This document shows positions 1,976-16,718 of a DNA stretch of 64,000 bases, piece by piece. The notes beneath the pieces were generated by a model. It was not told the DNA's origin, ran no database searches, and was given only the letters and a program-made list of their open reading frames with translations. The stretch spans positions 32,001 to 96,000 of the IMG/VR virus record IMGVR_UViG_3300032323_000716. One strand, given 5' to 3'. Numbering within the stretch: the stretch's first letter is position 1; each line of letters starts with the position of its first letter. The position numbers were made by a program, and so were the translations under genes. This DNA is from a virus.

Positions 1976-2302
1976 ATGGGACGACAAGTATCATCCTTTG
2001 GAACCGATGCAGTAACAAACAGAACCGTAACAAGTACTGGTAACGTCACTGCTGGCGAAAGAATTTTCGCTAACGCAACAGGAGGAGCATTTACCCTAAC
2101 TCTGCCAGCATCACCTGCGGAAGGTGACACTATTCAGATCATCGACGTTGCCGGTATTTTTACAACAAATAACGTAACGATCGCTAGAAATGGACAAAGA
2201 ATTCAGAACCTAAACGAGAATTTAGTTTTAGATATGAACAATGCAGCAGTTACAATGATTTATTCGGGTGCTACCTTCGGTTGGGTATTCATCGGACCAT
2301 AA
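1976..2302 (+). CDS. Small tail-fibre-associated protein
   Basis: SD AGGAG. The motif FTLTLPASPAEGDTIQIID...NNVTIARNG matches the module common in T4-like fibre proteins. Confidence 0.55.
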   Translation: MGRQVSSFGTDAVTNRTVTSTGNVTAGERIFANATGGAFTLTLPASPAEGDTIQIIDVAGIFTTNNVTIARNGQRIQNLNENLVLDMNNAAVTMIYSGATFGWVFIGP

Positions 2303-2314
2303 TAGGAAAATAAA

Positions 2315-3334
2315 ATGGCAAGACTTACTGATCTACTGACCACTAGGGAGATCATGGCCAACCAGCAGAATCTGGAGAAGGGCCGGGTATTCACCGTTAC
2401 CCCTAGTACGATGTTTACCTGCATCCGAGATGATATGGGCTGGTGTTGGACCTCTCCCGGATGCGGAGTTTTAGAAATTGAAATGTGGGGAGCAGCGGGC
2501 GGTGGATCTCGTATGTGTTGCTGTGGTGGCGGCCTACCAGGCAATGCTCCCGGTTATACAAGAAAATGCATAGCGGTATTTTGTAATACAGCAATTTGTG
2601 CCTGTCCAGGAATGGCCTGTAACGCACACGATCTATGCTTTAGCGGTTGCGGCTTGCCAAGTTATTTGAGATGGTGTAATGCTCGAGACTTGTGCGGATA
2701 TAGCAACGGCTGTATGTGTGCCCAAGGCGGTAAAGGTGGCAACAGTTTCTGTTCAACATCAACATCTGTCTACTGCTGTTTTGTAGCAGGCGGATTCTGT
2801 CACACACTATTTGCTAACAGTTGCGGTATTGTATGTAATCAATGTCCAGGCGCCTGGATTGGTTGCGGTTATGGCGGCGACACTAATTGCTGCGGATGTA
2901 TCAGTTATATGCACTTCTTCTGTAATACAGGCAATCCTCGCCCTTGCTATGTACATCAATTCGTTGCTTATTCACCAGGAATATTCAGCGATCAAGGCGG
3001 TGTCATAGCATCTATGGCAGAAGAAGATCCAGAATTTACACAATGGAGCGGCGCAGGGCTATTAAATCATCAATATGCTCAAAACGCTCTAAGCAGATCA
3101 CCAATTAGCGGTATATCATGGATGACCTGTCAAGCAAGTACACAGAGTTGCGGCTGTTACGAAATGTATGGCTGTATGCCGTTTAACTCTTATGGCGTAG
3201 GTGGACTTCCACCATATCCATGTCCGGATGTTAGAGATCACGGTAAACGTGGTGGACATGGTGCTATTAGATTAACTTATAGGGGATCAAATATCGCTGG
3301 TCAGAACTGTGCTAAACTAGGAGGCTCGTACTAA
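2315..3334 (+). CDS. Cys-rich, Gly-rich tail-associated protein, paralogue 1
   Basis: About 36 Cys in 339 aa by hand count. Motifs: NLEKGR, WGAAGGGSRMCCCG, AQGGKGG, SCGCYE, PCPDVRD, RGGHGAIRL. Confidence 0.6.
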   Translation: MARLTDLLTTREIMANQQNLEKGRVFTVTPSTMFTCIRDDMGWCWTSPGCGVLEIEMWGAAGGGSRMCCCGGGLPGNAPGYTRKCIAVFCNTAICACPGMACNAHDLCFSGCGLPSYLRWCNARDLCGYSNGCMCAQGGKGGNSFCSTSTSVYCCFVAGGFCHTLFANSCGIVCNQCPGAWIGCGYGGDTNCCGCISYMHFFCNTGNPRPCYVHQFVAYSPGIFSDQGGVIASMAEEDPEFTQWSGAGLLNHQYAQNALSRSPISGISWMTCQASTQSCGCYEMYGCMPFNSYGVGGLPPYPCPDVRDHGKRGGHGAIRLTYRGSNIAGQNCAKLGGSY

Positions 3335-3335
3335 A

Positions 3336-4565
3336 ATGGCAAAATTATCAAATCTACTAGGAAACAGAGAACTGGCTTTTGAAGATAACCTAGAAAAAGG
3401 TCGTATCTGGGTCTACCACGACGGCAATATGTATTCAACGTTCTGTAATGGATTCTGTTGGAGATCTCCAGGTACTGGTACTGTGCAAATCGATATGTGG
3501 GGTGCTGCTGGCTCAGGCGCACAGATGTGCTGCTGCGGTGCAGGACTTCCAGGTAACGCACCTGCTTATGTAAGAAAATGTATATGTGTAATCTCAGGAA
3601 ATTATATCTGCGGTTACATCGGTCGTTCATGTAATAACTCATCAGCACTGTGCTTTAGAGGTTGCTCTGAGGCTACCTGCGTATGCTGGTTTGGTTGCTC
3701 ACATCACAATTTAAGCGAAGGTGGCCAACTTTGGAATGAATCCGACGAACGGGTTCCAGCAAACCCATGGGGTTGGGGCGGCCAAGGAGCAGATGCATTA
3801 TCTCAATCTAACAGTCAAATTGAAGGTCGCGGCGATCGTAGTAATCTTAACGGCGCTAATCAAGGCTGTATGTTGTGCTGCGACACAGGAAGATGCTGTA
3901 CTGTTGGCCGTTTAGGCGGTAACTTTACTAGAGGTTGCTTGTGCGCACAAGGCGGTAGAGGTGGTATATCATTCTGTATGGATACCAAGTCTCCTTATTC
4001 ATGCTTTAGAACAGGTTATTTCTGCGGCCAAGGCCTAGGACCTGGACATAACATGTGCGATACAGGTAACTCAGCCTGCGGTATGATCTGTAACTGGTGT
4101 CAGAACGGATTTAACGTGGCCTGCGGCTACGGTGGAGATATCAACTGCTGCGGTCTATGGTCATGCACATCATTCCATGCATGTTTGCAGACTTGCCCAT
4201 GTATGTACCAGTATCACGTACCTACTGCTGCTGGAATATTTGCAGAAGATGGCGGTCAGTTTACCTACACTACATACAGTGACGGAAATCCACAGGGAGA
4301 TTGGTCAGGTGCTCCGTTGGCAGCACAGTTTAATGCATTAAAATCGCTAAGCCGCTGGCCTAGCCATCAAGAGCATTACACCTGTTGGAATAACCAAAGA
4401 TCCTGCGGCTGTTATGAAATGCAAGGTTGTATGAACTTTATGCCTGTAGGCGTACCGGGTTCAGCGGCTCATCCATGTCCTAGCGTTCGTGATCATGCTG
4501 GTCGCGGCGGCTTGGGTGCAGTGCGTGTTAAGTTTATTCCTGCTAGTGGTCAAACTTCTTACTAA
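3336..4565 (+). CDS. Cys-rich, Gly-rich tail-associated protein, paralogue 2
   Basis: About 40 Cys in 409 aa, with the same motif series as paralogue 1 plus a ~60-aa insertion. Confidence 0.6.
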   Translation: MAKLSNLLGNRELAFEDNLEKGRIWVYHDGNMYSTFCNGFCWRSPGTGTVQIDMWGAAGSGAQMCCCGAGLPGNAPAYVRKCICVISGNYICGYIGRSCNNSSALCFRGCSEATCVCWFGCSHHNLSEGGQLWNESDERVPANPWGWGGQGADALSQSNSQIEGRGDRSNLNGANQGCMLCCDTGRCCTVGRLGGNFTRGCLCAQGGRGGISFCMDTKSPYSCFRTGYFCGQGLGPGHNMCDTGNSACGMICNWCQNGFNVACGYGGDINCCGLWSCTSFHACLQTCPCMYQYHVPTAAGIFAEDGGQFTYTTYSDGNPQGDWSGAPLAAQFNALKSLSRWPSHQEHYTCWNNQRSCGCYEMQGCMNFMPVGVPGSAAHPCPSVRDHAGRGGLGAVRVKFIPASGQTSY

Positions 4566-4612
4566 TATGGATAAATTAACAGTGACAATAATATTAAAAG
4601 GAGGCCTATAAC

Positions 4613-5605
4613 GTGAGCCTTAGAAGATTAGTCGAACAAAAATTAGACCAGATCAACTACGACGAGTACAATCTGGAAAAAGGCCGCGTATGGGCTTATA
4701 CTCCAGGCACAGAATACGCTAACTTCGTTAATGGATTCTGCTGGATTGCCTGTTGTACAGGGCGAGTAATCCTTGATGTTTGGGGAGCAGGCGGCAGCGG
4801 CGCTAGAATGTGCTGCTGTGGAATGGGAATTCCAGGAAATCCCGGTGCTTATGCAAGAAGATGTATTTGCGTAAACGCAGGTGATTTAGTCTGCGGCTTT
4901 GTAGGTCGTTCATGTAACAACGCTGACACATTGTGTTTCAGAGGTTGTTCAGAAGCCACTTGTGTATGTTGGTTTGGACGAAATCCAAATACTGGTGTTG
5001 CTATCAACGGCTGTATTTGTACACAAGGCGGTCGTGGAGGCACAACATGGTGCTCCACAGGCACAGGCGGCTATTGCTGCTTTACATCCGGTAACTTCTG
5101 TAATACTAACTATGGTGGATCACAGGGTATAATCTGTAACTTTGGCTCAGGCACAGGATCATGCTGTGCAGAAGCCTTTGGTGGAGATATTAACAAGCGT
5201 GGTGGATTTAGTTGTGCCACATTCTGGGGAACTAACGGTAGTTCATGCCCATGTGCTACTCACTATCACGTCGGTGTTCCGCCAGGAATGTTTGCCTGTG
5301 ACGGCGGCGTAGTTACATATACAGTAGAAGCAGATAATGGATTCTCAGAATGGAGCGGTATGGGTTATCATCAGTTTACTTCTGCATTGAACGCTATGAG
5401 TCGTTCGCCTGCTAGAGGTATTCCTTGGACAGCCTGCTACTCAGGACACACAAGAGCATGTGGATGCTATGATGTCAACGGATGCCAGCCGTTTATTCCA
5501 CCAGGAATGGGCGGTTTACCAGCACAGCCATGTCCAGATGTTAGAGACAATGGTTACAGGGGCGGATTGGGATTAGTAAGAATTAACTTTATCGAGAGGA
5601 TATAA
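4613..5605 (+). CDS. Cys-rich, Gly-rich tail-associated protein, paralogue 3
   Basis: GTG start with SD AGGAGG. Same motif series: WGAGGSGARMCCCG, PCPDVRD, RGGLGLVRI. Confidence 0.6.
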   Translation: MSLRRLVEQKLDQINYDEYNLEKGRVWAYTPGTEYANFVNGFCWIACCTGRVILDVWGAGGSGARMCCCGMGIPGNPGAYARRCICVNAGDLVCGFVGRSCNNADTLCFRGCSEATCVCWFGRNPNTGVAINGCICTQGGRGGTTWCSTGTGGYCCFTSGNFCNTNYGGSQGIICNFGSGTGSCCAEAFGGDINKRGGFSCATFWGTNGSSCPCATHYHVGVPPGMFACDGGVVTYTVEADNGFSEWSGMGYHQFTSALNAMSRSPARGIPWTACYSGHTRACGCYDVNGCQPFIPPGMGGLPAQPCPDVRDNGYRGGLGLVRINFIERI

Positions 5606-6249
5606 TGAGAAAAGCATTTAAAGCGGTTCTTCCAGACGAACCATATAAGACAACTACTAAAAAGAACATTACTGTAGATTGCATCTATACCGGAAGACGT
5701 TTCCTGTTGATCCGTTTAAATGGGGATGGTACTATGTTTGCTCTAGAAAGAGCAGCAGAGACAGAAGCAGAATTAGAGCCATTTAAAATGACTCCTGAGC
5801 AATTAGCACTAGATGGAGATACTTTCCAAATTGTGCTAGATGCAGAAGTCAATACTTGGGAAGCAGCACATATTACTCATGACTACGAACACGGTGAAGT
5901 TCCAAATTACAAGGAAACTTTGCCTACTGGAGAAGTCTATGAATATCACTACGATGACTTTTGTGCAGCCTTAGATCAGCCATTCTATGTCAATGATATG
6001 CGTTACGACATTCCAACTAAAACTTGGATACGTCCTCGATACAGAGTTCACGCTGTAACAAGACAAGATTTTCTTGCAGGCATGGCTATTCAGGCTAGAG
6101 TATTCAAAGAAGCATACGATAGCGGAAAATATCTAGCCCAAGATATGGAAAAATTCAAAGAATACTATGAATTTTGCCAATCTGTACCAACTAAGTACGC
6201 TAATGTAGATCATTGGAAGATTAACTGCCCAGCACCTCCAATTATCTAA
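5605..6249 (+). CDS. Hypothetical protein (possible fibre assembly chaperone)
   Basis: Translationally coupled (TAATG) to the Cys-rich trio. It ends in a Pro-rich tail, as fibre-assembly proteins often do. Confidence 0.4.
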   Translation: MRKAFKAVLPDEPYKTTTKKNITVDCIYTGRRFLLIRLNGDGTMFALERAAETEAELEPFKMTPEQLALDGDTFQIVLDAEVNTWEAAHITHDYEHGEVPNYKETLPTGEVYEYHYDDFCAALDQPFYVNDMRYDIPTKTWIRPRYRVHAVTRQDFLAGMAIQARVFKEAYDSGKYLAQDMEKFKEYYEFCQSVPTKYANVDHWKINCPAPPII

Positions 6250-6263
6250 TTAATTTTTAAACC

Positions 6264-6320
6264 AAGAAAGGCCTTGTGCTTATATCCGAGAGGATATATA
6301 ATGCGTACAAGGCCTTTCTT
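6264..6320 (+). promoter_or_regulatory. Long hairpin containing a sigma70-type promoter
   Basis: Perfect 14-bp arms AAGAAAGGCCTTGT (6264-6277) and ACAAGGCCTTTCTT (6307-6320). Inner stem TATATCC-GAGA-GGATATA. TTGTGC (6274)-17 nt-TATAAT (6297). Confidence 0.6.
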
Positions 6321-6332
6321 ATTGGAGTTTAA

Positions 6333-7274
6333 ATGACAAGATCCAAAGCATTTTTTGTAAACGGCGGTGCTGGCCGTATGATTACATCCGTACCTGCTTT
6401 TGAAAAATACGAACAAGAATCTGAAGATAAAGATTTTATTATCGTCTGCGAAGGTGGCACAGACGTATTTAAAGGACACCCAACCTTAGATTCTAGAACC
6501 TACGATGTGTGGCACAAGGGGTTATTCAAAGATTTTCTAAAAAACAGAGAAATCGTAACCACTGAACCTTACAGAATCTGGGAATACTATAATCAACAAT
6601 GTTCCATTGCCCAAGCGTTTGATATACAGATTAATAACAAAGGTATTAGAGAATTACCTAAACCTACATTACGCCTGAGCAAAGACGAACTATTAAATGG
6701 TCGCCAGGTTGTTACTCAAGTTAAAGAAAAATTAAAAAAAGATAAACTTGTGGTTCTTCAACCATTTGGCAGAGGTATCGAGTATATTGACGAAACGCTA
6801 GTAGATAGAACTGCTAGAAGTTTTGAATTAAAAGATGTTAAGCAAATAATTAAAAAATTACAGGAAAACGGATACGCTGTAATATTGATGAGCGAATTTA
6901 AGATTGACCTAGTTGACGCTAAACTCAAAGACGAAGTGGCCATGCCAGAAAATGTATCATTTAGAGTATGGGCTGCTATCGTTAAGTATGCAGATCATTT
7001 CTTAGGTTGCGACAGCCTGGGACAACATCTGTCTTACATTATGGAGACTCCGAGTACTGTGGTTACTGGATCTACATATCCTATTAACGTTTCTTATCCT
7101 GATTGCAAATATTTTGACATTCTAGATATGGGAGAAGTAAGTAGGGAGTACAGTCCTATTAGGATTCTACCAGACGAGCGAGTTGATAGATTGAACGAAA
7201 ATATCATGTCGATGAACGACGACATTACCACACTTATTGTAAATCACGTTTTAGGAAAAAAAGATGACAGTTAA
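6333..7274 (+). CDS. GT-B glycosyltransferase, GT9 / heptosyltransferase-like
   Basis: N-terminal GGAGRMI and C-terminal ADHFLGCDSLGQHL match the GT9 pattern fiG.DSG..HlA. Confidence 0.6.
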   Translation: MTRSKAFFVNGGAGRMITSVPAFEKYEQESEDKDFIIVCEGGTDVFKGHPTLDSRTYDVWHKGLFKDFLKNREIVTTEPYRIWEYYNQQCSIAQAFDIQINNKGIRELPKPTLRLSKDELLNGRQVVTQVKEKLKKDKLVVLQPFGRGIEYIDETLVDRTARSFELKDVKQIIKKLQENGYAVILMSEFKIDLVDAKLKDEVAMPENVSFRVWAAIVKYADHFLGCDSLGQHLSYIMETPSTVVTGSTYPINVSYPDCKYFDILDMGEVSREYSPIRILPDERVDRLNENIMSMNDDITTLIVNHVLGKKDDS

Positions 7275-9096
7275 AACTATCGAATTAAAAAAAGAAAAAA
7301 AGCCTGTTTGGATTGCGGCAATTGCTCGAGGTCACAACAGTGGAGTTTGTCTTCTAAAAGACGGTGAAATAGTATTTGCCATAGAAGAAGAAAGATTCAC
7401 AAGACAAAAATATGACGGTGGTCCGCTTGCATCTATGGTCAAAATCTTAGAATACACGGACAAGTTAGATTATCTAATTATTGCACATACACAAAATCTG
7501 CAAGAAACTGCAGGAAAGATTGATTATACTGGCGACGATATTTACACTGGTTTGGCTAGAAAATTAAACTTGATCGATCGCAAAGTTAAAGATTTGCATC
7601 GCCATCCACAGGTCATTGATCTAAGTTTCATGCATCACAAATTACATTCTGCTTGTGCTTTTTATCGCAGCGGTTTCAAAGATGCTGTTAGCGTAGTAGT
7701 AGATGGCGCAGGTACGTTTTATCAAATGTCTTACAACGAAATGCCAATGTGGGTATGGGAAGTAGAATCTATTGTTAATTGTGATTATCCTGCAGAATTT
7801 AAAACACTTTACAAGCACTACGGAACCAAAGAACCTATTGCAGGTGCTTACATGCCTAACTTCCCGTCCAGCAATCTAGGCGAAGACGGCGAAACACACG
7901 AAGCATGGGTAACTGATCGTGCAGGTATTGTTAAAGCCTACGAAGGAGTTACAGAATACTGTGGTTTTTCAGCAATTGAGGCTGGCAAGACCATGGGACT
8001 ATTTCCTTACGGTAAACCCAACGACAAGATTCCTCCGTTGTTCGACGACACATCAAAGATTCCGTTAACTAACAGAAACTTGTTTGTTCCTAAGTACCCA
8101 ATGAGCAGCATGGTCAACGGAAATCTTTTTGACTTCTTAGACGAAATGCCTCAGAATCCCGGAGACGATGTTACATATCTACAGAGTCGCAGAGACATGG
8201 CCTATGCTGTGCAGACTCAGACACAAGAACAAGTTCTTAAATTGATTAAAGAATCAGTTAAGAGAACTGGTCGTAAGAATGTTGTGCTTAGTGGCGGTTA
8301 CGGTCTAAACTGTGTGGCCAACTATTATTATCTCACAGAACTAAACAAAGAAGGTATTAACCTATACGTCGAACCTATCAGCAATGATGCAGGAACAGCA
8401 ATTGGTGCTGCTCTTATGTTCTGGCACGGTATGCATCACGACGAAACTATTCGTGTACATGACAGTTTGTACCTTGGTCCTAAATATACATATTCTGTTG
8501 AAGAGATTGAAAGCAAAGTTGCTGCTATTAAAGATGCAGTAGTTACTGATGCTGCACACAAAGATGTTGTTAAGTTATTGCGTGAAAAGAATATTGTTAC
8601 TATTTTCCAAGGACGTTCAGAAAATGGTCCAAGAGCATTAGGCAATCGAAGTGTACTGTTTGACCCAACATTCAAAGACGGCAAAGACTTTGTAAACATG
8701 GTCAAGCGTCGTGAATACTTCCGTCCATTTGCTGGCAGTATTCTAGAAGAAGATGTTCATGAATGGTTTGATTTGCGTGGAATGAAAAATAGTCCGTTTA
8801 TGATGTACGCTGTTAACTGCCAACCGGGCGTTGAGGAAAAGATTCCAAGTATTATTCACGAGGATCATACCTGCCGTATTCAAACAGTTAATCGCGAGCA
8901 AAATCCTCACTACTACGATTTGATTAAAACATTCAAAGACGAAACTGGAATTCCTATTGTTTTCAATACCAGTTTTAATCTAGGCGGCGAACCCCTAGTA
9001 GAAACACTAGACGATGCACTATGGACCTTAGAAAAGTCCGATATTGAGTATCTGTATCTTCCTGAATACGGAAAATTAGTTAAAGTTCCTAATTAA
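7264..9096 (+). CDS. Carbamoyltransferase, NodU/CmcH/TobZ family, full length
   Basis: Kae1-like domain motifs GHNS, EEERFTR, HHKLHS, VVDGAG, GKTMGL, SGGYGLNC and NDAGTAIGA. YrdC-like domain motifs GPRALGNRS, KRREYFRPFA, CRIQTV and NTSFN. Confidence 0.92.
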   Translation: MTVKTIELKKEKKPVWIAAIARGHNSGVCLLKDGEIVFAIEEERFTRQKYDGGPLASMVKILEYTDKLDYLIIAHTQNLQETAGKIDYTGDDIYTGLARKLNLIDRKVKDLHRHPQVIDLSFMHHKLHSACAFYRSGFKDAVSVVVDGAGTFYQMSYNEMPMWVWEVESIVNCDYPAEFKTLYKHYGTKEPIAGAYMPNFPSSNLGEDGETHEAWVTDRAGIVKAYEGVTEYCGFSAIEAGKTMGLFPYGKPNDKIPPLFDDTSKIPLTNRNLFVPKYPMSSMVNGNLFDFLDEMPQNPGDDVTYLQSRRDMAYAVQTQTQEQVLKLIKESVKRTGRKNVVLSGGYGLNCVANYYYLTELNKEGINLYVEPISNDAGTAIGAALMFWHGMHHDETIRVHDSLYLGPKYTYSVEEIESKVAAIKDAVVTDAAHKDVVKLLREKNIVTIFQGRSENGPRALGNRSVLFDPTFKDGKDFVNMVKRREYFRPFAGSILEEDVHEWFDLRGMKNSPFMMYAVNCQPGVEEKIPSIIHEDHTCRIQTVNREQNPHYYDLIKTFKDETGIPIVFNTSFNLGGEPLVETLDDALWTLEKSDIEYLYLPEYGKLVKVPN

Positions 9097-9101
9097 GGTA
9101 T

Positions 9102-9135
9102 ATCCGATCTATGGTAAATACACTATAGATCGGAT
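9102..9135 (+). promoter_or_regulatory. Hairpin with late-type TAAATA box in its loop (terminator / RBS-occluding element)
   Basis: 11-bp arms ATCCGATCTAT (9102-9112) and ATAGATCGGAT (9125-9135). TAAATA lies at 9115-9120 and the next ATG at 9141. Confidence 0.55.
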
Positions 9136-9140
9136 TTCTT

Positions 9141-9578
9141 ATGTTAAATTTTGCTAGTTTTTTCTTACAAGGATTAAAAAATACACTGCGTTTACAGAAC
9201 GGAGTGAATTTCTCCTATAAAGGGCCGTGGATGCTCTTTACGGAAAATGCTGTCTTGGACGAATTCTATGTGGGCGATTTTATGGCTGCAGAATATACTA
9301 TCGTTGTAGACGCAGGTAACACAAGAAAAGAAATGATCAAAGCCCTAGTTGTAGCAGGACCAGAATCTGCTACAGTTACAGTCTATGGCAGAACCAATCT
9401 CAGCGAAAATCTAATAGATCTAAACGTTCTAGTTACTGCTTCAAAGTGCTCTGTAACTATTCGTGGAGCCAACAGTCCTACAGACAGTACCTACGATAAT
9501 TCGACTCTGCTGACCGGTGCTAAGGTGATTTACAGTGCTAATTATTATCATACTGTAAACGCTTTGGTACCTTATTAA
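9141..9578 (+). CDS. Hypothetical virion structural protein
   Basis: 145-aa beta-rich ORF after a TAAATA box, within the tail region. Confidence 0.45.
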   Translation: MLNFASFFLQGLKNTLRLQNGVNFSYKGPWMLFTENAVLDEFYVGDFMAAEYTIVVDAGNTRKEMIKALVVAGPESATVTVYGRTNLSENLIDLNVLVTASKCSVTIRGANSPTDSTYDNSTLLTGAKVIYSANYYHTVNALVPY

Positions 9579-9647
9579 ATATTACCCTGACTAAATACTA
9601 TCATAGTCTTTGTAGTAGTTGTAGTAGGAGTGATAGCGGAGATCTAA

Positions 9648-10244
9648 ATGTCAATCAATTATATACCTTTTGAGTCTAAAAGCGGGTTTCGTAGCCCAGG
9701 GTTCTCAGTAGACGAATTAGGCAATGTGCAGGTCAGGACCCTTGAAGTTGGCGGTCGAGGCGAGGAAAGCATCTTACGTGCCGACCAAATTTATGTAAAA
9801 AATATCCAATTAATAGAAGCCGATTTTGACGAATCGTCTTTGGTTGCGTTAGGCAGCCAAATCATCGGTAGTTCTTTAACAAGACTAGGAACATTAGAAT
9901 TTCTAAATATTGACGGGGATCTACGTATTGCTCAAGGCTCGTCGCCATACTTTAGTGTGGTTAACGGGCATGTTGAAATAGAAAGTTTTGCCGCAGTAGG
10001 CAGAATGGATAACATCGAAATTGGATTACAAAATCCAGCAGCAGGAAATTTTACCACACTTAATGTAGGACCAGGCGATAGCACAGGAGAATTAACTGTG
10101 CAAGGAAATGCCAGTGTAACCAACGATATCAGTATAGGAGGCGATGTATCTATCACCAATGCTCCTTCTTTGAACTCTCACGCTACAAGAAAAGATTATG
10201 TTGATGCAAGAATTTCTGCTTTCGCTATTGCTTTTGGAGCATAA
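9648..10244 (+). CDS. Hypothetical virion structural protein (fibre-like)
   Basis: TAAATA at 9592 and SD GGAG. Contains GSSLTRLGTL and the C-terminal HATRKDYVD motif typical of fibre proteins. Confidence 0.5.
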   Translation: MSINYIPFESKSGFRSPGFSVDELGNVQVRTLEVGGRGEESILRADQIYVKNIQLIEADFDESSLVALGSQIIGSSLTRLGTLEFLNIDGDLRIAQGSSPYFSVVNGHVEIESFAAVGRMDNIEIGLQNPAAGNFTTLNVGPGDSTGELTVQGNASVTNDISIGGDVSITNAPSLNSHATRKDYVDARISAFAIAFGA

Positions 10245-10256
10245 GGAAAATTATAA

Positions 10257-13200
10257 ATGGCTAAGAAACAATTAAAAAATTATGTATTTGAACCAGGTAT
10301 CAGTAAAAACGATAACCTGTATCCCAGAGCAGTGGCTTTACTATCTGCCAACAAAGCCTTTTTACAGGCACAGGTAGTAGCGTTTATTAATAATCAAATA
10401 ACAAACAACGTTGCTCCGTATGTAAGTTATACATATGCTAGTCAGAAATGTACTAGAGACGTAGGATTTTTTATTGATGCAATATTACACGATCTAAGAT
10501 ACGGTGGAAATGTTAAGTGTCGTCAAGTTGCTGATTATTTCTGGATCGACGGCGAGCCACAGATTCGTGGAGATGTTACTCCTGAAACAACTGCTCAGAC
10601 ATATCTTAGAACCATTATTAATAATTTTATTTTTACAAATACATCAGTATCTCCTAGTTATGGTAACACTGTGTCGCAGGCTTTCATCCTTGGTCAAAAT
10701 GCAGAAACAGGAGCAGATACTAGAAATACTACGCTGTGGAATATTTTTACAGATGTTATTACCAATGGTACTCCTGCTATGCCAGCAAAAATTCCTGGCG
10801 TATCATCCATTCGTTTAGTTGGACAGATAGATATAAGTTCAATTTTGTTAATCACAGATGTTAACAGCGGACAGATACTTTATAATTTTGCCGATGCTAA
10901 CAACTCTGTTACAGTTTCCTATAAACAAGGTCGTAGTAGCAGTGACGGCCAATTGTTAAGTGATGTAGATTTTCAATCTTGGTGGCAGGCTAGCGATTCT
11001 ATCACTGACATGTTCCTTAGCACAGATACTAGCAGTCTTTCATCAGGATCCGAATTACAGATTTTTGTAGAAGAAGAATATCAAACTATTAGACCTTGGC
11101 AATTCGGCACAGATGCTATTGAGCGTATGCGTGTTGCTGCTCCGCAGGCCATGCTTGACGCTGACTTTGAGTACGGACTACAGCCAACTAAGTGGCAGGC
11201 ATTGGGTACTATTCGTATGTACCCGTCAGTTTTTGAAGTTCCTGGCACAGATCTAGGAGTTTCTAACGTTATCACAGATGCTTCAGTAAACACTGGCGGG
11301 TTTGGTTCTTCATTGATCACCGTTACTACTTCTGGAGTACACGGATTTTCAATAGGACAACCTATAACAGTTAAAGGTCTCAATGCAGGACTAAGTGGTT
11401 TTGCTAGAGCAGAAGGATCGTTTTTAATCTATAGTATTCCAAGTTCTGTAAGTTTTACCTATTTTGCCAGTGCTAAGGTTGGTACGAACTCTGGCGATAG
11501 TTTGTTTACTACATTTACACAGATTCGTCAGGCAGGTTTTTATACTGGAGCATCTATTGGCACACCAACATTTTCAGTGTTCAGTAACGGTACTGTCAAT
11601 AACATAACATCTAAGTTTGATACTCCTTCGGGCAGTTTTTCCATAGCCTTTAACGGAACCTCTCCAACAGTTGGCTCTCCTATTTCTGGAAGCCCGAATA
11701 TTGCTGCTGGTACTTCAGTGGCTGGTGTAATTGGATCGGGGACCGTAGTAGCAAGAGTTAAAGAAACTGTAAGTTCAACGTCAGATACTTCTATAAGAAT
11801 AGTAGATTTAACTGGAATACAACAGCAAATGGCTCTTGATGCTGCCGGCGATGCTGTGTTTATTAACTCAATATCAGGAGACCAATTAACACTTTCTGGA
11901 GCAATAGGATCCACTTATACAGGTGCCAACGGTACCAATGCAACAGTAACTGGTACAAATATTACTCCTATTGGCACAGGCGCAACATTTACAGTTTTTA
12001 GAAGTTCAGGATTTTATACAGTTACAGATGCAGGCGACAGTACATGGAACGGAACCAATTATGCCGTAGGTGATAATTTATTAATTTTAGGAACTTCTTT
12101 AGGAGGTGCCTCACCAGCCAACGACGTCACAGTTGTGGTTACTGCCATTGACTCGGGTGGCGCCATTGAAGGTTTTACATCTGCAGGTAATGCAGTTACT
12201 GGCGGTGCTACATATACCAACGTAGCACAATTTTCCAGCACTGGTGGCGGATCAGGATTTTTAATAGACGTTGTTCGAGCAGGCGGAACAGGTATATATA
12301 ATATAACGCTGGCCGCAGGTGGAACTAGTTATAGTCCCGGCGACACTGTAACATTTGCAGGTACAGACTTAGGCGGATCAAGTCCGGCTAACGATATTGT
12401 TATTCAAATTAATGGAGTAGGCTTTCCTAGTCAAAACGTAGTAGACTATGAAATTGTTGGTACTCCAGTAGGCGCATCAGGTGACGCATCATACACATCA
12501 GTGTCTGCTTCTAACATTCCAGCATCTGGTTCTGGCGCTGAGTTTGACATTACTAGAAATAACGGAGTCTATACCGCAGCCATTGCAGTCCTAGGAGACG
12601 GCGGCGGCGGTTATAATATTGGAAACAGAATTAGAATTTTAGGTACAAGTTTAAATGGTGCATCGCCAGCAAATGACTGTATTGTAAGAGTGAGCGGTGC
12701 TACCGGTGGAATTATTACATCTGTAACAGCAGAAGGAACTCCTTATGCAGGTGATACAATTTCTATCTATCCAACATTAAGTATCAGTGAAGCATTAACA
12801 GGAGCAATTTTAGACGGTTCAGTATTGAATACTGGCGCAATTGCTACTATACAGGTAGACTTCAGTTCCCCACACGGACTAGTACCCGGAACTACAGTTC
12901 TTACACAGGTAACTTCACAGCCTGCTCCTGAATTTGCATCACAGTCTAGAACACTACCAGCATCCGGCACATGGACTGGTGCAGCGGGTCTAAACGGAAT
13001 ATTTGTTGCTGTATTATCTGGATCTAGCGTTTCTGCTAGATCTACAGATGGTCAATCATGGGAAGCAGGAGGCAATATGCCTTCTGGAGCAGCATGGAAA
13101 TCAGTGACTGCAGGAACTATAGGATCAACTAATTATTTTGTAGCAGTAGCCAACGGTCCTTCGACCGCAGCAGCATGGTCGGCAAATGGCGGTACCACAT

Positions 13201-16200
13201 GGGCTGCCTCTACACTACCTAGCAATTCGAACTGGAGTTCAATAACATTTGGAGATGGTAGATTTGTAGCAGTTGCTTCTGGCGGAACTGCCACAGCATT
13301 CTCCACAGACGGCGGCCAAACTTGGTCATCAGGCGGTGCATTATCAACATCAACTACATGGACTGATGTAGCAGCGGGTCTAGTAGGTACCAGCGTTTAT
13401 TTTGTAGCCATAGCCTCGGGCGGTACAGTAGCAAACTATTCTGCAGATGGCGGCGTATCTTGGATAGCCACCGGAGCATTGCCAGCAACAGCAACATGGA
13501 CTAGTTTAGCATACGGAAATAACAGATTCTTTGCTGTGGCTTCAGGAGGAACTACTTCTGCATTTTCAACTAACGGTACAACATGGACAGCCGCAACATT
13601 GCCTAGCAGTGCTACTTGGAGTTCAGTGGCCTATGGCGACGATGTGTTTTTAGTTGTGGCTTCTGGTAGCACATCGGCATTAACATCATTTACCGGTGAA
13701 ACAGGTTCGTTCACTGCAAGAACACTGTCTGCTACTTCTAACTGGTCTGAACTTGCATACACCGCTTATACTGGTTTTGGTAGATTTGTTGCAGTAGGAA
13801 ATACTACTGCGGCTCAAAGCATAGACCTTACTTCCGCTAATCACCAATTGGGCACTGGTCCTCACGTAGTTACTGCGGTCCCTGCACCATCTACTATAAG
13901 ATTCCCGGCAAGAACTACTGGTACTATTAATACAGCAACCGCTTCTATGACCGGTGTTGTATATGCAAGACCTGATGCGTTCTTTACTCACAGACCGTTT
14001 GACGGCGGTGTACAATTAGGTACAGGAAACCCGAGTCACGGTGCGCAGGCCATACGTCAAAGTAAAAAATATATCCGTTACCAATCTGGTAAAGGTATGA
14101 TGTATACCACTGGTGGTTTATTTGCTCCTAGTTATAACATTGCCAGTGCTACAGCCGTTGATACTGTGATTAACAGTTTTATCACGGTGACACTAGATGA
14201 CACAGATCATGGTCTACAACCGGGTGCTATTGTTGAAATCATTGGTATGTTGTCATTTGAGTATAACGGAGAATATACAGTTGAAAGTATTGTCGATGCT
14301 CGTAGATTCCGAGTTAGAGCAGGAGTAACTCTAAGTACAACATCGGCACAATTAGGTCCTGATTGTAAAGTATTATTAAAACGTTGGCACGGTGCCACAG
14401 TTCGTATTGGTGCATTTGACGAACAGAATGGTATTTTTTATCAATATGATGGCCAAGAAATGGCAGTTGTTAGAAGATCTAGCACAAATCAATTAACAGG
14501 TACAGTATCTATCTCTGTTGATAGTAACAGTGTATTTGGTACAGGAACTAGATTTACTGAACAATTAAAAGTTGGCGATAAAATTGTTATTAGAGGTATG
14601 AGTCATTTAGTTACTTCTATCACTAATAACACATCTATGACGGTGGCTCCAGACTGGAGGGGTGCTAATACAATTTCCGGTGCTAAGATCTGTGTCACTG
14701 AAGAATTATATATTCCCCAAAGCCAATGGAATCTTGACAAATTAGACGGTACTGGCGCTAGTGGATATAATTTATTACCATGGCGTATGCAGATGTTAGG
14801 TATGCAATATTCATGGTACGCTGCAGGTTTCATTGAATGGATGATGCGTGGCGCAGATGGTAGATTTGTATTCTTACACAAAGTTAGAAATTCAAACGTA
14901 AACACAGAAGCATATATGCGTACTGCTAACTTGCCTGTGCGTTACGAAGTTGAAAACAGATCAGCCGTAGGAAAATTAGCCGAAACTATTAATAGTACAG
15001 CAACTAGTTTAAGAGTTACAGATGCTAGTCGCTTCCCAACATCTGGAACATTGTATATTGACAACGAATTAATTTCTTATTCTGGAAAATCTGGAAATAC
15101 ATTAACCAGTCTAACTAGGGCTGCAACTTTCTTGGCATTTACTGCTGGACAGAATAGAACTTTTTCTGCAGGTTCTGCAGTAACTCACAGTGAAGGCGCA
15201 GGAGTAACACTGGTAAGTTGTACAACTAGTCCAACAATCAGTCACTGGGGTTCTGCTCTGTTAACAGATGGATTATTTGACGAAGATCGAGGCTACATTT
15301 TTAACTATGCTGCAACGGGTTTGAGTATTACTACTGCTAAACAAACAGCATTTATGATTCGATTAGCACCTTCAGTTTCTAACGCTATTGTTGGAGACCT
15401 TGGAGAAAGAGATCTTCTTAACAGAGCGCAGTTATTGTTAAATGAGATTGCTGTTACCAGCGATACTGGTTCAGGAGCCATTGTTGTTGAAGGTATTTTA
15501 AACCCAAGAAACTATCCTGCTAACCCAACTAACATTACTTGGGCGGGATTATCAAGTTCAGCGGCAGGTGGACAACCAAGTTTTGCTCAAATTGCACTAG
15601 GTGGTTCCATTAACTGGGGTGGCGTACCTTTAACCACAACTACCGCAACTATTCAAGGTGCATTAACAACAACAATAACAGCAAGAGGCTTTTCTACAGT
15701 TACTCAAATATTAACTGCTATAGCAAACAGTGGATTTAGAACTCAGGCTTTTCTAAATACTCAAAATGATTTCTATATAACTAACTCTGCATTTGATGGT
15801 ATTCAGGCTGGTGCAACACCTATACGTGTTGGAGATAGACTAAGTCTAACAACATTTATTACTGGTGGTCAGACTATTTCTAATTTTACAAGAAACTTCT
15901 CAAACAGCGGTTTTACTAGAATAGTAATGAGCGCCAATGCCAACGGTAACAGTGCGGCATTTGCCAATCAATCTGTAACCTGCACAAATAGTATTTCAAC
16001 TGGTTATGCCAGTGCGTTTGTTAACGGTAGAACAGATTTCTTGATCGCAGATACAGATCTTACTACATCAAATTTAACAGTTGGTGATACATTAAGTGTG
16101 GCTTCATTCTTGATCAGTAATCAAACAGTGCAATCTATCACATCGTCATTTGCAAGAGTTTCTGGAACTAACTTTACTCGTATAGTTATGAGTTCTGCTG

Positions 16201-16718
16201 CAAACGCTACACAATCGGTCAATACTAACACTTCAACAACTGTAACTGCTTCGGGTACAGGTTCTAGTTATGCTGGTAACTTTATATTCTTTACACAGGC
16301 AACTTGGAACAACTCCGGGGCGTCAGTGGGTACTCGAGTCGCTACTAGTTTTACACAGTTTCCTGCAGGTACTGCTGTATCCGCAGTAAGTACACGAAGA
16401 TTGGGTACTACTACAGTGATACGTGCAACATTTACTCAGACTCTTACTACATCAGTGAATGCTGCAGGAACTGTGACATTCCAGTTTGGTGACCCACAGT
16501 TTGCGCTGCCAGGAGAACAGGTTTTCTCTTTTGTTACTAACCCAGGTAACGTTGCTAGCTTGACCTTAAAAGAACTTAAAGAGTTAACTACTACTGCAAT
16601 TGGTGGTCGAGGTGCGTTCCCAAATGGCCCGGACGTGTTGGCTATTAATATCTTTAAAGTTACAGGTACCGCAACACCCGGAGCGATTATTCTGCGTTGG
16701 GGAGAGGCGCAGGCTTAA
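10257..16718 (+). CDS. Large tail fibre / baseplate-associated structural protein (2153 aa)
   Basis: Ser/Thr/Gly-rich. Contains three GtsLgGaSPAND repeats, about six propeller-type repeats (W..v.yg.g.FvAva.gg...a.S.dG.tW) and a C-terminal ~85-aa tandem repeat. Confidence 0.75.
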   Translation: MAKKQLKNYVFEPGISKNDNLYPRAVALLSANKAFLQAQVVAFINNQITNNVAPYVSYTYASQKCTRDVGFFIDAILHDLRYGGNVKCRQVADYFWIDGEPQIRGDVTPETTAQTYLRTIINNFIFTNTSVSPSYGNTVSQAFILGQNAETGADTRNTTLWNIFTDVITNGTPAMPAKIPGVSSIRLVGQIDISSILLITDVNSGQILYNFADANNSVTVSYKQGRSSSDGQLLSDVDFQSWWQASDSITDMFLSTDTSSLSSGSELQIFVEEEYQTIRPWQFGTDAIERMRVAAPQAMLDADFEYGLQPTKWQALGTIRMYPSVFEVPGTDLGVSNVITDASVNTGGFGSSLITVTTSGVHGFSIGQPITVKGLNAGLSGFARAEGSFLIYSIPSSVSFTYFASAKVGTNSGDSLFTTFTQIRQAGFYTGASIGTPTFSVFSNGTVNNITSKFDTPSGSFSIAFNGTSPTVGSPISGSPNIAAGTSVAGVIGSGTVVARVKETVSSTSDTSIRIVDLTGIQQQMALDAAGDAVFINSISGDQLTLSGAIGSTYTGANGTNATVTGTNITPIGTGATFTVFRSSGFYTVTDAGDSTWNGTNYAVGDNLLILGTSLGGASPANDVTVVVTAIDSGGAIEGFTSAGNAVTGGATYTNVAQFSSTGGGSGFLIDVVRAGGTGIYNITLAAGGTSYSPGDTVTFAGTDLGGSSPANDIVIQINGVGFPSQNVVDYEIVGTPVGASGDASYTSVSASNIPASGSGAEFDITRNNGVYTAAIAVLGDGGGGYNIGNRIRILGTSLNGASPANDCIVRVSGATGGIITSVTAEGTPYAGDTISIYPTLSISEALTGAILDGSVLNTGAIATIQVDFSSPHGLVPGTTVLTQVTSQPAPEFASQSRTLPASGTWTGAAGLNGIFVAVLSGSSVSARSTDGQSWEAGGNMPSGAAWKSVTAGTIGSTNYFVAVANGPSTAAAWSANGGTTWAASTLPSNSNWSSITFGDGRFVAVASGGTATAFSTDGGQTWSSGGALSTSTTWTDVAAGLVGTSVYFVAIASGGTVANYSADGGVSWIATGALPATATWTSLAYGNNRFFAVASGGTTSAFSTNGTTWTAATLPSSATWSSVAYGDDVFLVVASGSTSALTSFTGETGSFTARTLSATSNWSELAYTAYTGFGRFVAVGNTTAAQSIDLTSANHQLGTGPHVVTAVPAPSTIRFPARTTGTINTATASMTGVVYARPDAFFTHRPFDGGVQLGTGNPSHGAQAIRQSKKYIRYQSGKGMMYTTGGLFAPSYNIASATAVDTVINSFITVTLDDTDHGLQPGAIVEIIGMLSFEYNGEYTVESIVDARRFRVRAGVTLSTTSAQLGPDCKVLLKRWHGATVRIGAFDEQNGIFYQYDGQEMAVVRRSSTNQLTGTVSISVDSNSVFGTGTRFTEQLKVGDKIVIRGMSHLVTSITNNTSMTVAPDWRGANTISGAKICVTEELYIPQSQWNLDKLDGTGASGYNLLPWRMQMLGMQYSWYAAGFIEWMMRGADGRFVFLHKVRNSNVNTEAYMRTANLPVRYEVENRSAVGKLAETINSTATSLRVTDASRFPTSGTLYIDNELISYSGKSGNTLTSLTRAATFLAFTAGQNRTFSAGSAVTHSEGAGVTLVSCTTSPTISHWGSALLTDGLFDEDRGYIFNYAATGLSITTAKQTAFMIRLAPSVSNAIVGDLGERDLLNRAQLLLNEIAVTSDTGSGAIVVEGILNPRNYPANPTNITWAGLSSSAAGGQPSFAQIALGGSINWGGVPLTTTTATIQGALTTTITARGFSTVTQILTAIANSGFRTQAFLNTQNDFYITNSAFDGIQAGATPIRVGDRLSLTTFITGGQTISNFTRNFSNSGFTRIVMSANANGNSAAFANQSVTCTNSISTGYASAFVNGRTDFLIADTDLTTSNLTVGDTLSVASFLISNQTVQSITSSFARVSGTNFTRIVMSSAANATQSVNTNTSTTVTASGTGSSYAGNFIFFTQATWNNSGASVGTRVATSFTQFPAGTAVSAVSTRRLGTTTVIRATFTQTLTTSVNAAGTVTFQFGDPQFALPGEQVFSFVTNPGNVASLTLKELKELTTTAIGGRGAFPNGPDVLAINIFKVTGTATPGAIILRWGEAQA

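Follow-up and report, generated by a model that had tools for sequence, protein, structure and literature searches.

Three tandem genes, here called A, B and C, in a 64,000-nucleotide (nt) stretch of viral DNA encode paralogous proteins unusually rich in cysteine (Cys) and glycine (Gly). We consider them to be probably the distal, host-recognising fibre-tip proteins of a T4-like phage with a genome of about 350 kb, in which Cys residues would staple a Gly-rich fold. The whole stretch, called the window below, corresponds to bases 32001-96000 of the IMG/VR viral contig IMGVR_UViG_3300032323_000716, which is 115.8 kb long and 33% complete according to CheckV.

Three Cys-rich paralogues with a common Gly/Cys frame

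The three genes follow one another on the same strand (positions are those of the window; aa, amino acids):

2315-3334, + strand: putative Cys-rich fibre-tip protein A (type c1), 339 aa, 36 Cys (10.6%), 15.0% Gly
3336-4565, + strand: putative Cys-rich fibre-tip protein B (type c2), 409 aa, 40 Cys (9.8%), 15.4% Gly
4613-5605, + strand: putative Cys-rich fibre-tip protein C (type c3), 330 aa, 32 Cys (9.7%), 17.3% Gly

A sequence-only reading of this DNA had described three consecutive Cys-rich paralogous frames of 330-409 aa, with hand counts of about 36 and 40 Cys in the first two; its coordinates are right, and its counts are exact. The observation is confirmed as real and lies far beyond chance. 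Of the window's 44 open frames with a length of 200 aa or more, A, B and C have the highest Cys content; the next frame reaches 2.6% and the median is 1.1%. The upstream fibre genes code for 0-1 Cys each.

Pairwise identity among A, B and C is 43-49%. Their three-way alignment contains 21 invariant Cys columns and all ten motifs of the ordered series noticed earlier: NLEKGR, WGA.G.G..MCCCG, PGN, LCF.GC and GC.C.QGG.GG, followed by GGD.N, WSG, CGCY, PCP.VRD and RGG.G..R. Conservation of Cys is not confined to the trio, as 24 columns hold Cys in at least 80% of the sequences when 126 family members are aligned (Cys content 7.6-11.5%). At least 291 homologues of protein C were found in metagenomes. 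Within the ortholog groups, the conserved positions are occupied almost solely by Gly and Cys, with some aromatic or charged residues besides, while the positions between them vary freely in the manner of fast-evolving loops. A fixed Gly/Cys frame interrupted by hypervariable positions is what one sees where binding loops vary on a rigid scaffold, as in receptor-binding tips.

About 80 aa are inserted in protein B, at approximately residues 125-205, and contribute 6 extra Cys. This insertion is clade-specific: second-position copies are 394-428 aa long in the clade of the window, and 318-338 aa long and insertion-free elsewhere. Protein A clusters with first-position copies from other genomes. 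All three proteins match the hidden Markov model (HMM) of phrog_4205, a family of unknown function (A, E 1.3e-8 over residues 1-323; B, 1.7e-6; C, 8.7e-10), and the matches of A and C span nearly the whole profile.

Since A and B are separated by 1 nt and no conspicuous promoter or terminator lies inside the cluster, the three genes look co-transcribed. Protein C starts with a GTG codon 7 nt past a strong AAGGAGG ribosome-binding site. The 47-nt gap between B and C is occupied by a 14-codon mini open reading frame (ATG...TAA, 4568-4612), whose stop overlies the ribosome-binding site of C, 1 nt ahead of the GTG. In most relatives the second and third Cys-rich genes abut directly instead of leaving a 47-nt gap.

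Predicted fold of protein C

Protein C was modelled with AlphaFold2 (AF2) using 123 homologues, which gave a predicted local distance difference test score (pLDDT) of 84.5 and a predicted template modelling score (pTM) of 0.82. VIA-align superimposed residues 22-330 of the model on gp24, the tail fibre of cyanophage Pam3 (7ypx_A, residues 76-278), with Z 15.3 and a root-mean-square deviation of 3.3 Å, 193 residues being aligned of 250. Lower scores were obtained for the mycobacteriophage Bxb1 tail-tip chain 9d93_Qa (Z 11.8, 4.9 Å, 189 aligned) and for the glycine-rich domains of ALK/LTK (Z 7.5-9.2, about 150 residues), and unrelated folds stayed at Z 3.8 or below. Foldseek run on the same model agrees with this assignment. 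The best BFVD matches are proteins of S-CAM3, P-SSM2 and Syn9 (gp38) together with many 'glycine-rich domain-containing' phage proteins; the annotation of Syn9 gp38 as an assembly catalyst resembling T4 gp38 was made by similarity.

The model is supported by the direct-coupling map of the family, which yields sensible strand pairings and contacts among the Gly motifs (60-78, 60-223, 60-300, 63-301, 77-300 and 64-142). The Gly motifs WGAGG, GxGxPGN, QGGxGG, GGDxN and RGGxG are invariant. Going by this model, A, B and C are predicted to belong to an established group of fibre-tip proteins, composed of a TNF-like and a glycine-rich domain, and to be a Cys-rich variant within it. The earlier idea of Gly-rich framework fibre-tip proteins within a tail operon is supported both by the Pam3 gp24 match and by the fibre and connector genes on the flank. 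The Cys-rich branch of the glycine-rich tip fold is not previously described, and a literature search found no paper on it.

At the sequence level, none of the three proteins matches PF21722 Gly_rich_2 (gathering cut-off 24.3 bits) at E<=0.1, and A and C do not match it at E<=10 either. Two paralogues from Synechococcus phage S-SSM7 clear the cut-off (24.9 and 26.4 bits), and hhalign aligns the window-family profile with SSSM7_116 at a probability of 89% (E 2e-6). The link of A, B and C to Gly_rich_2 is transitive only, because it passes through an S-SSM7 paralogue. Searches of PDB sequences with the family profile and with an S-SSM7 paralogue returned no match.

Three ancient types kept as a set

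Copy number was counted at 81 related loci. Three tandem copies are present at 58 of them, two at 11 and one at 12, and the one- and two-copy loci are parts of shared genomes, as four long contigs have a single copy and a pair (1+2) at a distance of about 22 kb, again three in all. The complete relatives (353 and 364 kb) have exactly three copies each. In the split genomes, a giant gene of 1400-1680 aa comes after the lone copy, and the locus looks like a second fibre locus.

A tree was built from 169 distinct copies, and the position label (first, second or third) was scored on 141 of its tips. The label changes 5 times along the tree; in shuffles it changed 67 times on average and 56 times at the minimum. 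Such a low number of changes indicates that three ancient types have been retained in a fixed order. The conservation of the trio in homologues, which the sequence-only reading had proposed to look for, is therefore found as a set of three kept in relatives, and the trio is supported as a conserved unit.

Genes around the trio

The trio lies within a longer series of genes of the same orientation:

8-1630, + strand: tail-fibre protein, C-terminal 540 aa (frame open to the window start, the gene begins upstream), phrog_9851 E 2e-50
1642-1962, + strand: 106-aa fibre-associated small protein, phrog_11338 'tail fiber protein' E 2e-9
1976-2302, + strand: 108-aa putative stand-alone XD1-like (T4 gp9/gp10-type) trimeric connector domain, recognised with phmmer
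5605-6249, + strand: 214-aa conserved partner gene, its start overlapping the stop of C
6333-7274, + strand: glycosyltransferase (GT)-like gene, phrog_8954 E 6e-135
7264-9096, + strand: NodU/CmcH-type carbamoyltransferase, Pfam Carbam_trans_N E 5e-29 and Carbam_trans_C E 2.5e-58, overlapping the GT-like gene

This arrangement recurs in the 80 related IMG/VR loci used for the neighbourhood counts. Upstream, the fibre gene is found in 72/80, and the 106-aa and 108-aa genes in 67/80 each; in these 67 loci the end of the 108-aa gene is 13-59 nt from the first Cys-rich gene. Downstream, the 214-aa gene is present in 63/80 (median gap 20 nt), the GT-like gene in 61/80 and the carbamoyltransferase gene in 60/80.

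The fibre product has 1 Cys in 540 aa. The 106-aa protein resembles the N-termini of P-SSM2 PSSM2_302 and S-CAM1 SXBG_00228. The 108-aa protein was matched by phmmer to residues 90-174 of CBA120 TSP4-N (7rfv, 7rej and 7rfo, E 1.5e-8) and to the T4-type long-tail-fibre proximal subunit (9x3r, E 1e-4). Residues 90-174 of TSP4 fall within XD1, a trimeric connector module of the gp9/gp10 type (PMC8825819). The 108-aa protein is probably the docking piece for the tips.

The AF2 model of the 214-aa protein (pLDDT 96.4) consists of an N-terminal beta domain and a C-terminal helical hairpin. Foldseek found no match for it at E<=0.001, and the best of the matches listed by a wide VIA-align search, with Z 6.9, covers the helical hairpin only. 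For the beta domain at the N-terminus, which spans about residues 1-145, the fold may be new. S-CAM1 SXBG_00223 has the N-terminal LPDE(P)Y motif in common with this protein. From its position and its loosely similar two-part build, the 214-aa protein is a candidate fibre-assembly chaperone; the label follows from position, since no convincing solved fold relative was found. A complex prediction for C and the 214-aa protein, run without controls, scored 0.00 and speaks neither for nor against binding.

Past the GT-like/carbamoyltransferase pair, the loci of S-SSM7, P-SSM2 and S-CAM1 continue with heptose-pathway genes. A 'cysteine dioxygenase' is encoded in S-SSM7 and S-CAM1, and 2-oxoglutarate (2OG)-Fe(II) oxygenases and a tryptophan halogenase in S-SSM7.

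Cys spacing, covariation and replacement

In the family, the CxxC pattern is depleted (0.98 per protein, 2.34 expected), while CC (3.87 per protein, 2.8 expected) and CxC (3.76, 2.59 expected) are enriched, as are the CxxxC and Cx6C spacings. No pair of core conserved Cys has CxxC spacing, and the family alignment contains no invariant or nearly invariant histidine (His). Depletion of CxxC and the lack of conserved His argue against classical Zn or Fe-S sites, not against clusters of the metallothionein kind. The polynuclear Zn or Fe-S scaffold suggested in the sequence-only reading is thus weakened in its classical form.

The Cys residues depend on partners. Positive Cys-Cys couplings connect positions 171-208, 119-201, 108-112, 163-291 and 212-307; C108, C112, C208 and C212 have been jointly lost in several lineages; and alternative Cys solutions occur, e.g., C184+C185 or C178+C187+C196. 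Given these covarying pairs, some of the Cys may be paired. Other Cys vary together in groups of three or four (84/86/229, 178/187/196 and 108/112/208/212).

A lost core Cys is often replaced by arginine (Arg), at a different position in each clade. The identity exchange C67-R311 is among the top direct couplings (J(C,R) 2.05), which shows that at least one Cys/Arg case is spatially compensated. Exactly one Cys-to-Arg replacement is seen in many clades, the conserved column concerned (such as position 67, 112, 119, 201 or 291 of protein C) differing from clade to clade, and the variable columns 195, 196 and 311 alternate between Cys and Arg or lysine. Cys and Arg codons are one transition apart. 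The possibility that Cys serves as a small filler at Gly positions was considered and discarded, as replacements are mostly Arg, threonine, tyrosine (Tyr) and asparagine, not alanine, serine or Gly.

A proposed tip structure

We propose that each chain would begin with the N-terminal helix (residues 3-17) and the invariant NLEKGR peptide, followed by a TNF-like beta-sandwich. Gly-rich strands would leave the sandwich and pack as a polyglycine-II-type lattice, as in Pam3 gp24 and ALK/LTK. The receptor-binding surface would consist of the variable residues interspersed in the Gly/Cys frame, and the shared N-terminal peptide probably docks the tips on the XD1-like connector. With three ancient paralogue types kept as a set, we slightly prefer a pseudo-threefold heterotrimer made of one chain of each type to three separate tips.

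The approximately 26 conserved Cys would adjoin the Gly-rich strands (in MCCCG, GC.C.QGG, CGCY and PCP) and cooperate with partner Cys, most likely locking the ends of the Gly strands once the particle exits the reducing cytoplasm. Most of them may be present as disulfides, and some may be free or bonded to other subunits. To a main role in which disulfide staples predominate and some thiols stay free or link subunits, we give a chance just short of even. Disulfides are known from virions of cytoplasm-assembled phages, namely Pam3 (PMC9942802) and Milano (PMC10811340), at a Cys density far lower than in A, B and C. A bolder version, a heterotrimeric head in which about 100 Cys make a redox- or metal-dependent lattice, is in our opinion unlikely. 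The lattice would consist either of thiolate metal clusters, which would allow the polyglycine-II domain to fold in the cytoplasm, or of a disulfide latch, whose reduction at the host surface would be needed to set off infection.

Weighing of the alternatives

Several findings weigh against the proposed tip or against parts of it, and each is taken up here with the explanation it would favour. A, B and C have no direct match in Pfam and NCBIfam, and the N-terminus of the C model has a single helix (residues 3-17, about 15 in all) and then a linker of low confidence, compared with a trimerising stalk of 75 residues in Pam3 gp24. The family is not listed in the published cyanomyovirus virion proteomes that were read, and Table S8 of PMC3037559 (S-SM1, S-PM2 and Syn9) does not include its gene clusters. 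Its absence from virion proteomes could be expected if A, B and C were non-virion assembly factors for the upstream fibre, resembling T4 gp38 in its action on gp37 and shed before maturation. We regard this as most improbable: the closest solved relatives (Pam3 gp24 and the Bxb1 tail-tip chains) are virion components, receptor-binding tips typically combine a fixed frame, here of Gly and Cys, with hypervariable positions, the place of the chaperone is already held by the 214-aa gene, and Cys-rich peptides are readily missed by mass spectrometry without alkylation. For the 214-aa protein, on the other hand, neither Pam3 gp25 nor another Tfa chaperone was among the fold matches listed. The arrangement of the tips is a closer matter. 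Three separate tips, be they homotrimers like Pam3 gp24 or monomeric caps like S16 gp38, would give three receptor specificities per virion and are a real, if somewhat doubtful, possibility. Pam3 gp24 is homotrimeric (PMC9608196). In the split genomes L043, L053 and L057 (about 6150-13200 of each locus) the lone Cys-rich gene is preceded by Cys-free genes of its own, coding for 319/324 aa and 166 aa; L043 and L053 have a further gene of 112 aa between these two. These genomes carry c1, c1' and c3 instead of c1, c2 and c3; as the lone copy is a type 1 duplicate, they are without type 2. P-SSM2 has only two copies, with a 225-aa gene between them, and the N-terminal peptide common to all types would be expected if the docking sites were alike. 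On the other side, three copies are kept in two complete and four split genomes, the types and their order are older than the divergence of the genomes, and the abutting or overlapping genes (A-B here, B-C in relatives) fit equimolar synthesis. A constant three copies and ancient types in a fixed order favour a joint unit. Of the two arrangements suggested in the sequence-only reading, the heterotrimer is plausible and gains from these regularities; lone copies with their own connector and the two copies of P-SSM2 speak for alternative tips.

The chemistry of the Cys residues allows a similar comparison. A post-lysis disulfide net, as suggested from the sequence, loses ground in its complete form, since Cys counts have no even bias (57 even and 66 odd among proteins, 18 even and 29 odd among triads) and single losses are common: of 187 sequence clusters at 75% identity, 42 are without exactly one core Cys and 35 without two. 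A net with every Cys bonded is therefore unlikely, and what may stand of this suggestion is partial pairing through the covarying pairs. The statistics agree neither with metal sites of the classical form nor with a complete set of disulfides. A thiol oxidase of the PF04777 (Erv1/ALR) family was found neither in the window's genome nor in two complete relatives; as control genomes were silent too, this negative carries little weight. If the Cys were mainly metal ligands, in polynuclear thiolate clusters (Zn, Cu, Cd or Fe) similar to metallothionein that would hold the Gly strands in the reducing cytoplasm, Cys counts would be free of an even-number constraint, enrichment of CC and CxC would be typical, groups varying by three or four rather than in pairs would be accounted for, and folding, which must precede any oxidation, would have its support. 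Yet CxxC is depleted and no His is conserved, core Cys are replaced singly by bulky Arg or Tyr in many variants, which buried tetrathiolate sites rarely tolerate, and no fold relative is known to bind metal via Cys. In addition, trace metals are presumably scarce in the open-ocean samples that hold a part of the family (the Tara-named members). We consider a role as metal thiolate clusters improbable on balance, the remainder falling to modification or another role. Modification would mean that the Cys or neighbouring residues are substrates of co-inherited tailoring enzymes, many thiols being modified and not bonded. The GT-like and carbamoyltransferase genes do accompany the Cys-rich genes in 60-61 of the 80 loci, and do so in S-SSM7, P-SSM2 and S-CAM1, followed there by the heptose-pathway, 2OG-Fe(II) oxygenase and 'cysteine dioxygenase' genes. 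However, genetic linkage alone cannot name the target of an enzyme, NodU/TobZ-type enzymes carbamoylate sugar hydroxyls, and Cys-Cys covariation would be left unexplained, so we hold this to be very unlikely.

The source phage

The Cys-rich genes are also present on related contigs, among them one of 353 kb (98% complete) and one of 364 kb (100%). The window's carbamoyltransferase is 63% identical to its S-SSM7 counterpart, and sheath and virion genes are located downstream of the module. Because of the S-SSM7-like carbamoyltransferase and these downstream genes, together with the size of the relatives, the source is taken to be an uncultured giant (about 350-kb) relative of the T4-like cyanomyoviruses. 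The first 12 kb of the window gave no match in a megablast search.

A 2153-aa frame at 10257-16718, in which Pfam recognises no domain, is matched by phrog_5838 'virion structural protein' (E 2e-235). G+C content is 0.46 across 2001-6000 and about 0.38-0.41 in the flanks. This rise can be explained by the load of Gly (GGN) and Cys (TGY) codons, so a foreign origin is not required.

Significance

T4-like cyanophages are among the most abundant viruses of the ocean. To our knowledge, their receptor-binding proteins have not been identified experimentally. If the bolder reading of a heterotrimeric head is true, the receptor-binding proteins that have long been sought in many marine cyanomyoviruses would become known. 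The module is the best receptor-binding candidate in the phages that carry it, including the cultured and tractable S-SSM7, S-CAM1 and P-SSM2. The conserved trio also offers a natural test of the combination of paralogous tips on one fibre.

No precedent is described for about 10% of conserved Cys within a polyglycine-II domain. A heterotrimer with a Cys lattice, if true, would introduce a structural principle that is new to host recognition by phages, and the lattice itself would be a new means of stabilising an unusual protein fold. Should it be redox- or metal-sensitive, phage infectivity would be tied to the redox and trace-metal chemistry of seawater.

Comparison with known systems

Cultured cyanophages contain comparable Cys-rich proteins that are annotated as 'hypothetical protein': PSSM2_304 and PSSM2_306 (T4-GC 299 and 301), SSSM7_114-116 (T4-GC 1336-1338) and S-CAM1 SXBG_00226-00224. 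These are 261-356 aa long with 25-36 Cys (8-12%) and 14-18% Gly, and are present as two or three paralogues. In S-SSM7, three tandem paralogues of 261-264 aa with 28-30 Cys come after the tail-fibre gene. The order of the module in P-SSM2, S-CAM1 and S-SSM7 is that of the window: fibre, a protein of about 106 aa, one of about 100 aa, the Cys-rich genes, a protein of about 220-270 aa, the GT-like gene and the carbamoyltransferase. Besides module order, phrog_4205 and the hhalign alignment with SSSM7_116 connect these proteins with A, B and C. The kinship in sequence is distant: in tblastn searches against cultured phages, A had no close relative and C matched only 40-residue patches in S-CAM1.

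Pam3 gp24 (7YPX, 7YFW), a virion fibre component (PMC9608196), is similar to A, B and C in combining a TNF-like beta-sandwich with a glycine-rich domain, in having an N-terminal helix ahead of this head, and in being followed directly by a conserved gene, that of the gp25 chaperone. Pam3 is moreover a cyanobacterial phage with disulfides in its virion (PMC9942802). However, gp24 is not Cys-rich; its highlighted Cys28 lies in the 75-residue helical stalk and joins the fibre to the baseplate, whereas A, B and C have about 26 conserved Cys in the head and a helix of 15 residues. It is also the product of a single gene, forms a homotrimer and attaches directly to the baseplate, while here three paralogues stand behind a long fibre and a connector.

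The authors of the Pam3 work set gp24 beside S16 gp38 (PMC9608196). This T-even-type adhesin of Salmonella phage S16 (6F45) is likewise small and located at the tip, its gene comes behind that of the distal fibre, and it contains a polyglycine-II sandwich with loops that are hypervariable. It differs in being a monomer that caps the gp37 trimer, in its middle domain and in not being Cys-rich, and it was not among the structural matches listed by Foldseek and VIA-align. The glycine-rich (TG) domain of ALK/LTK (7LIR, 7NX3, 7LS0) has the TNF-like part and the polyglycine-II lattice in common with the C model, but belongs to animal receptor ectodomains that bind a cytokine, and its long Gly runs are without flanking Cys.

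Phage Milano is a further case of a cytoplasm-assembled particle with many disulfides, which need reduction for function (PMC10811340). Its structural proteins contain 2.1% Cys compared with about 10% in A, B and C, and its bonds are located in the sheath and baseplate, not in receptor-binding heads (PMC10811340).

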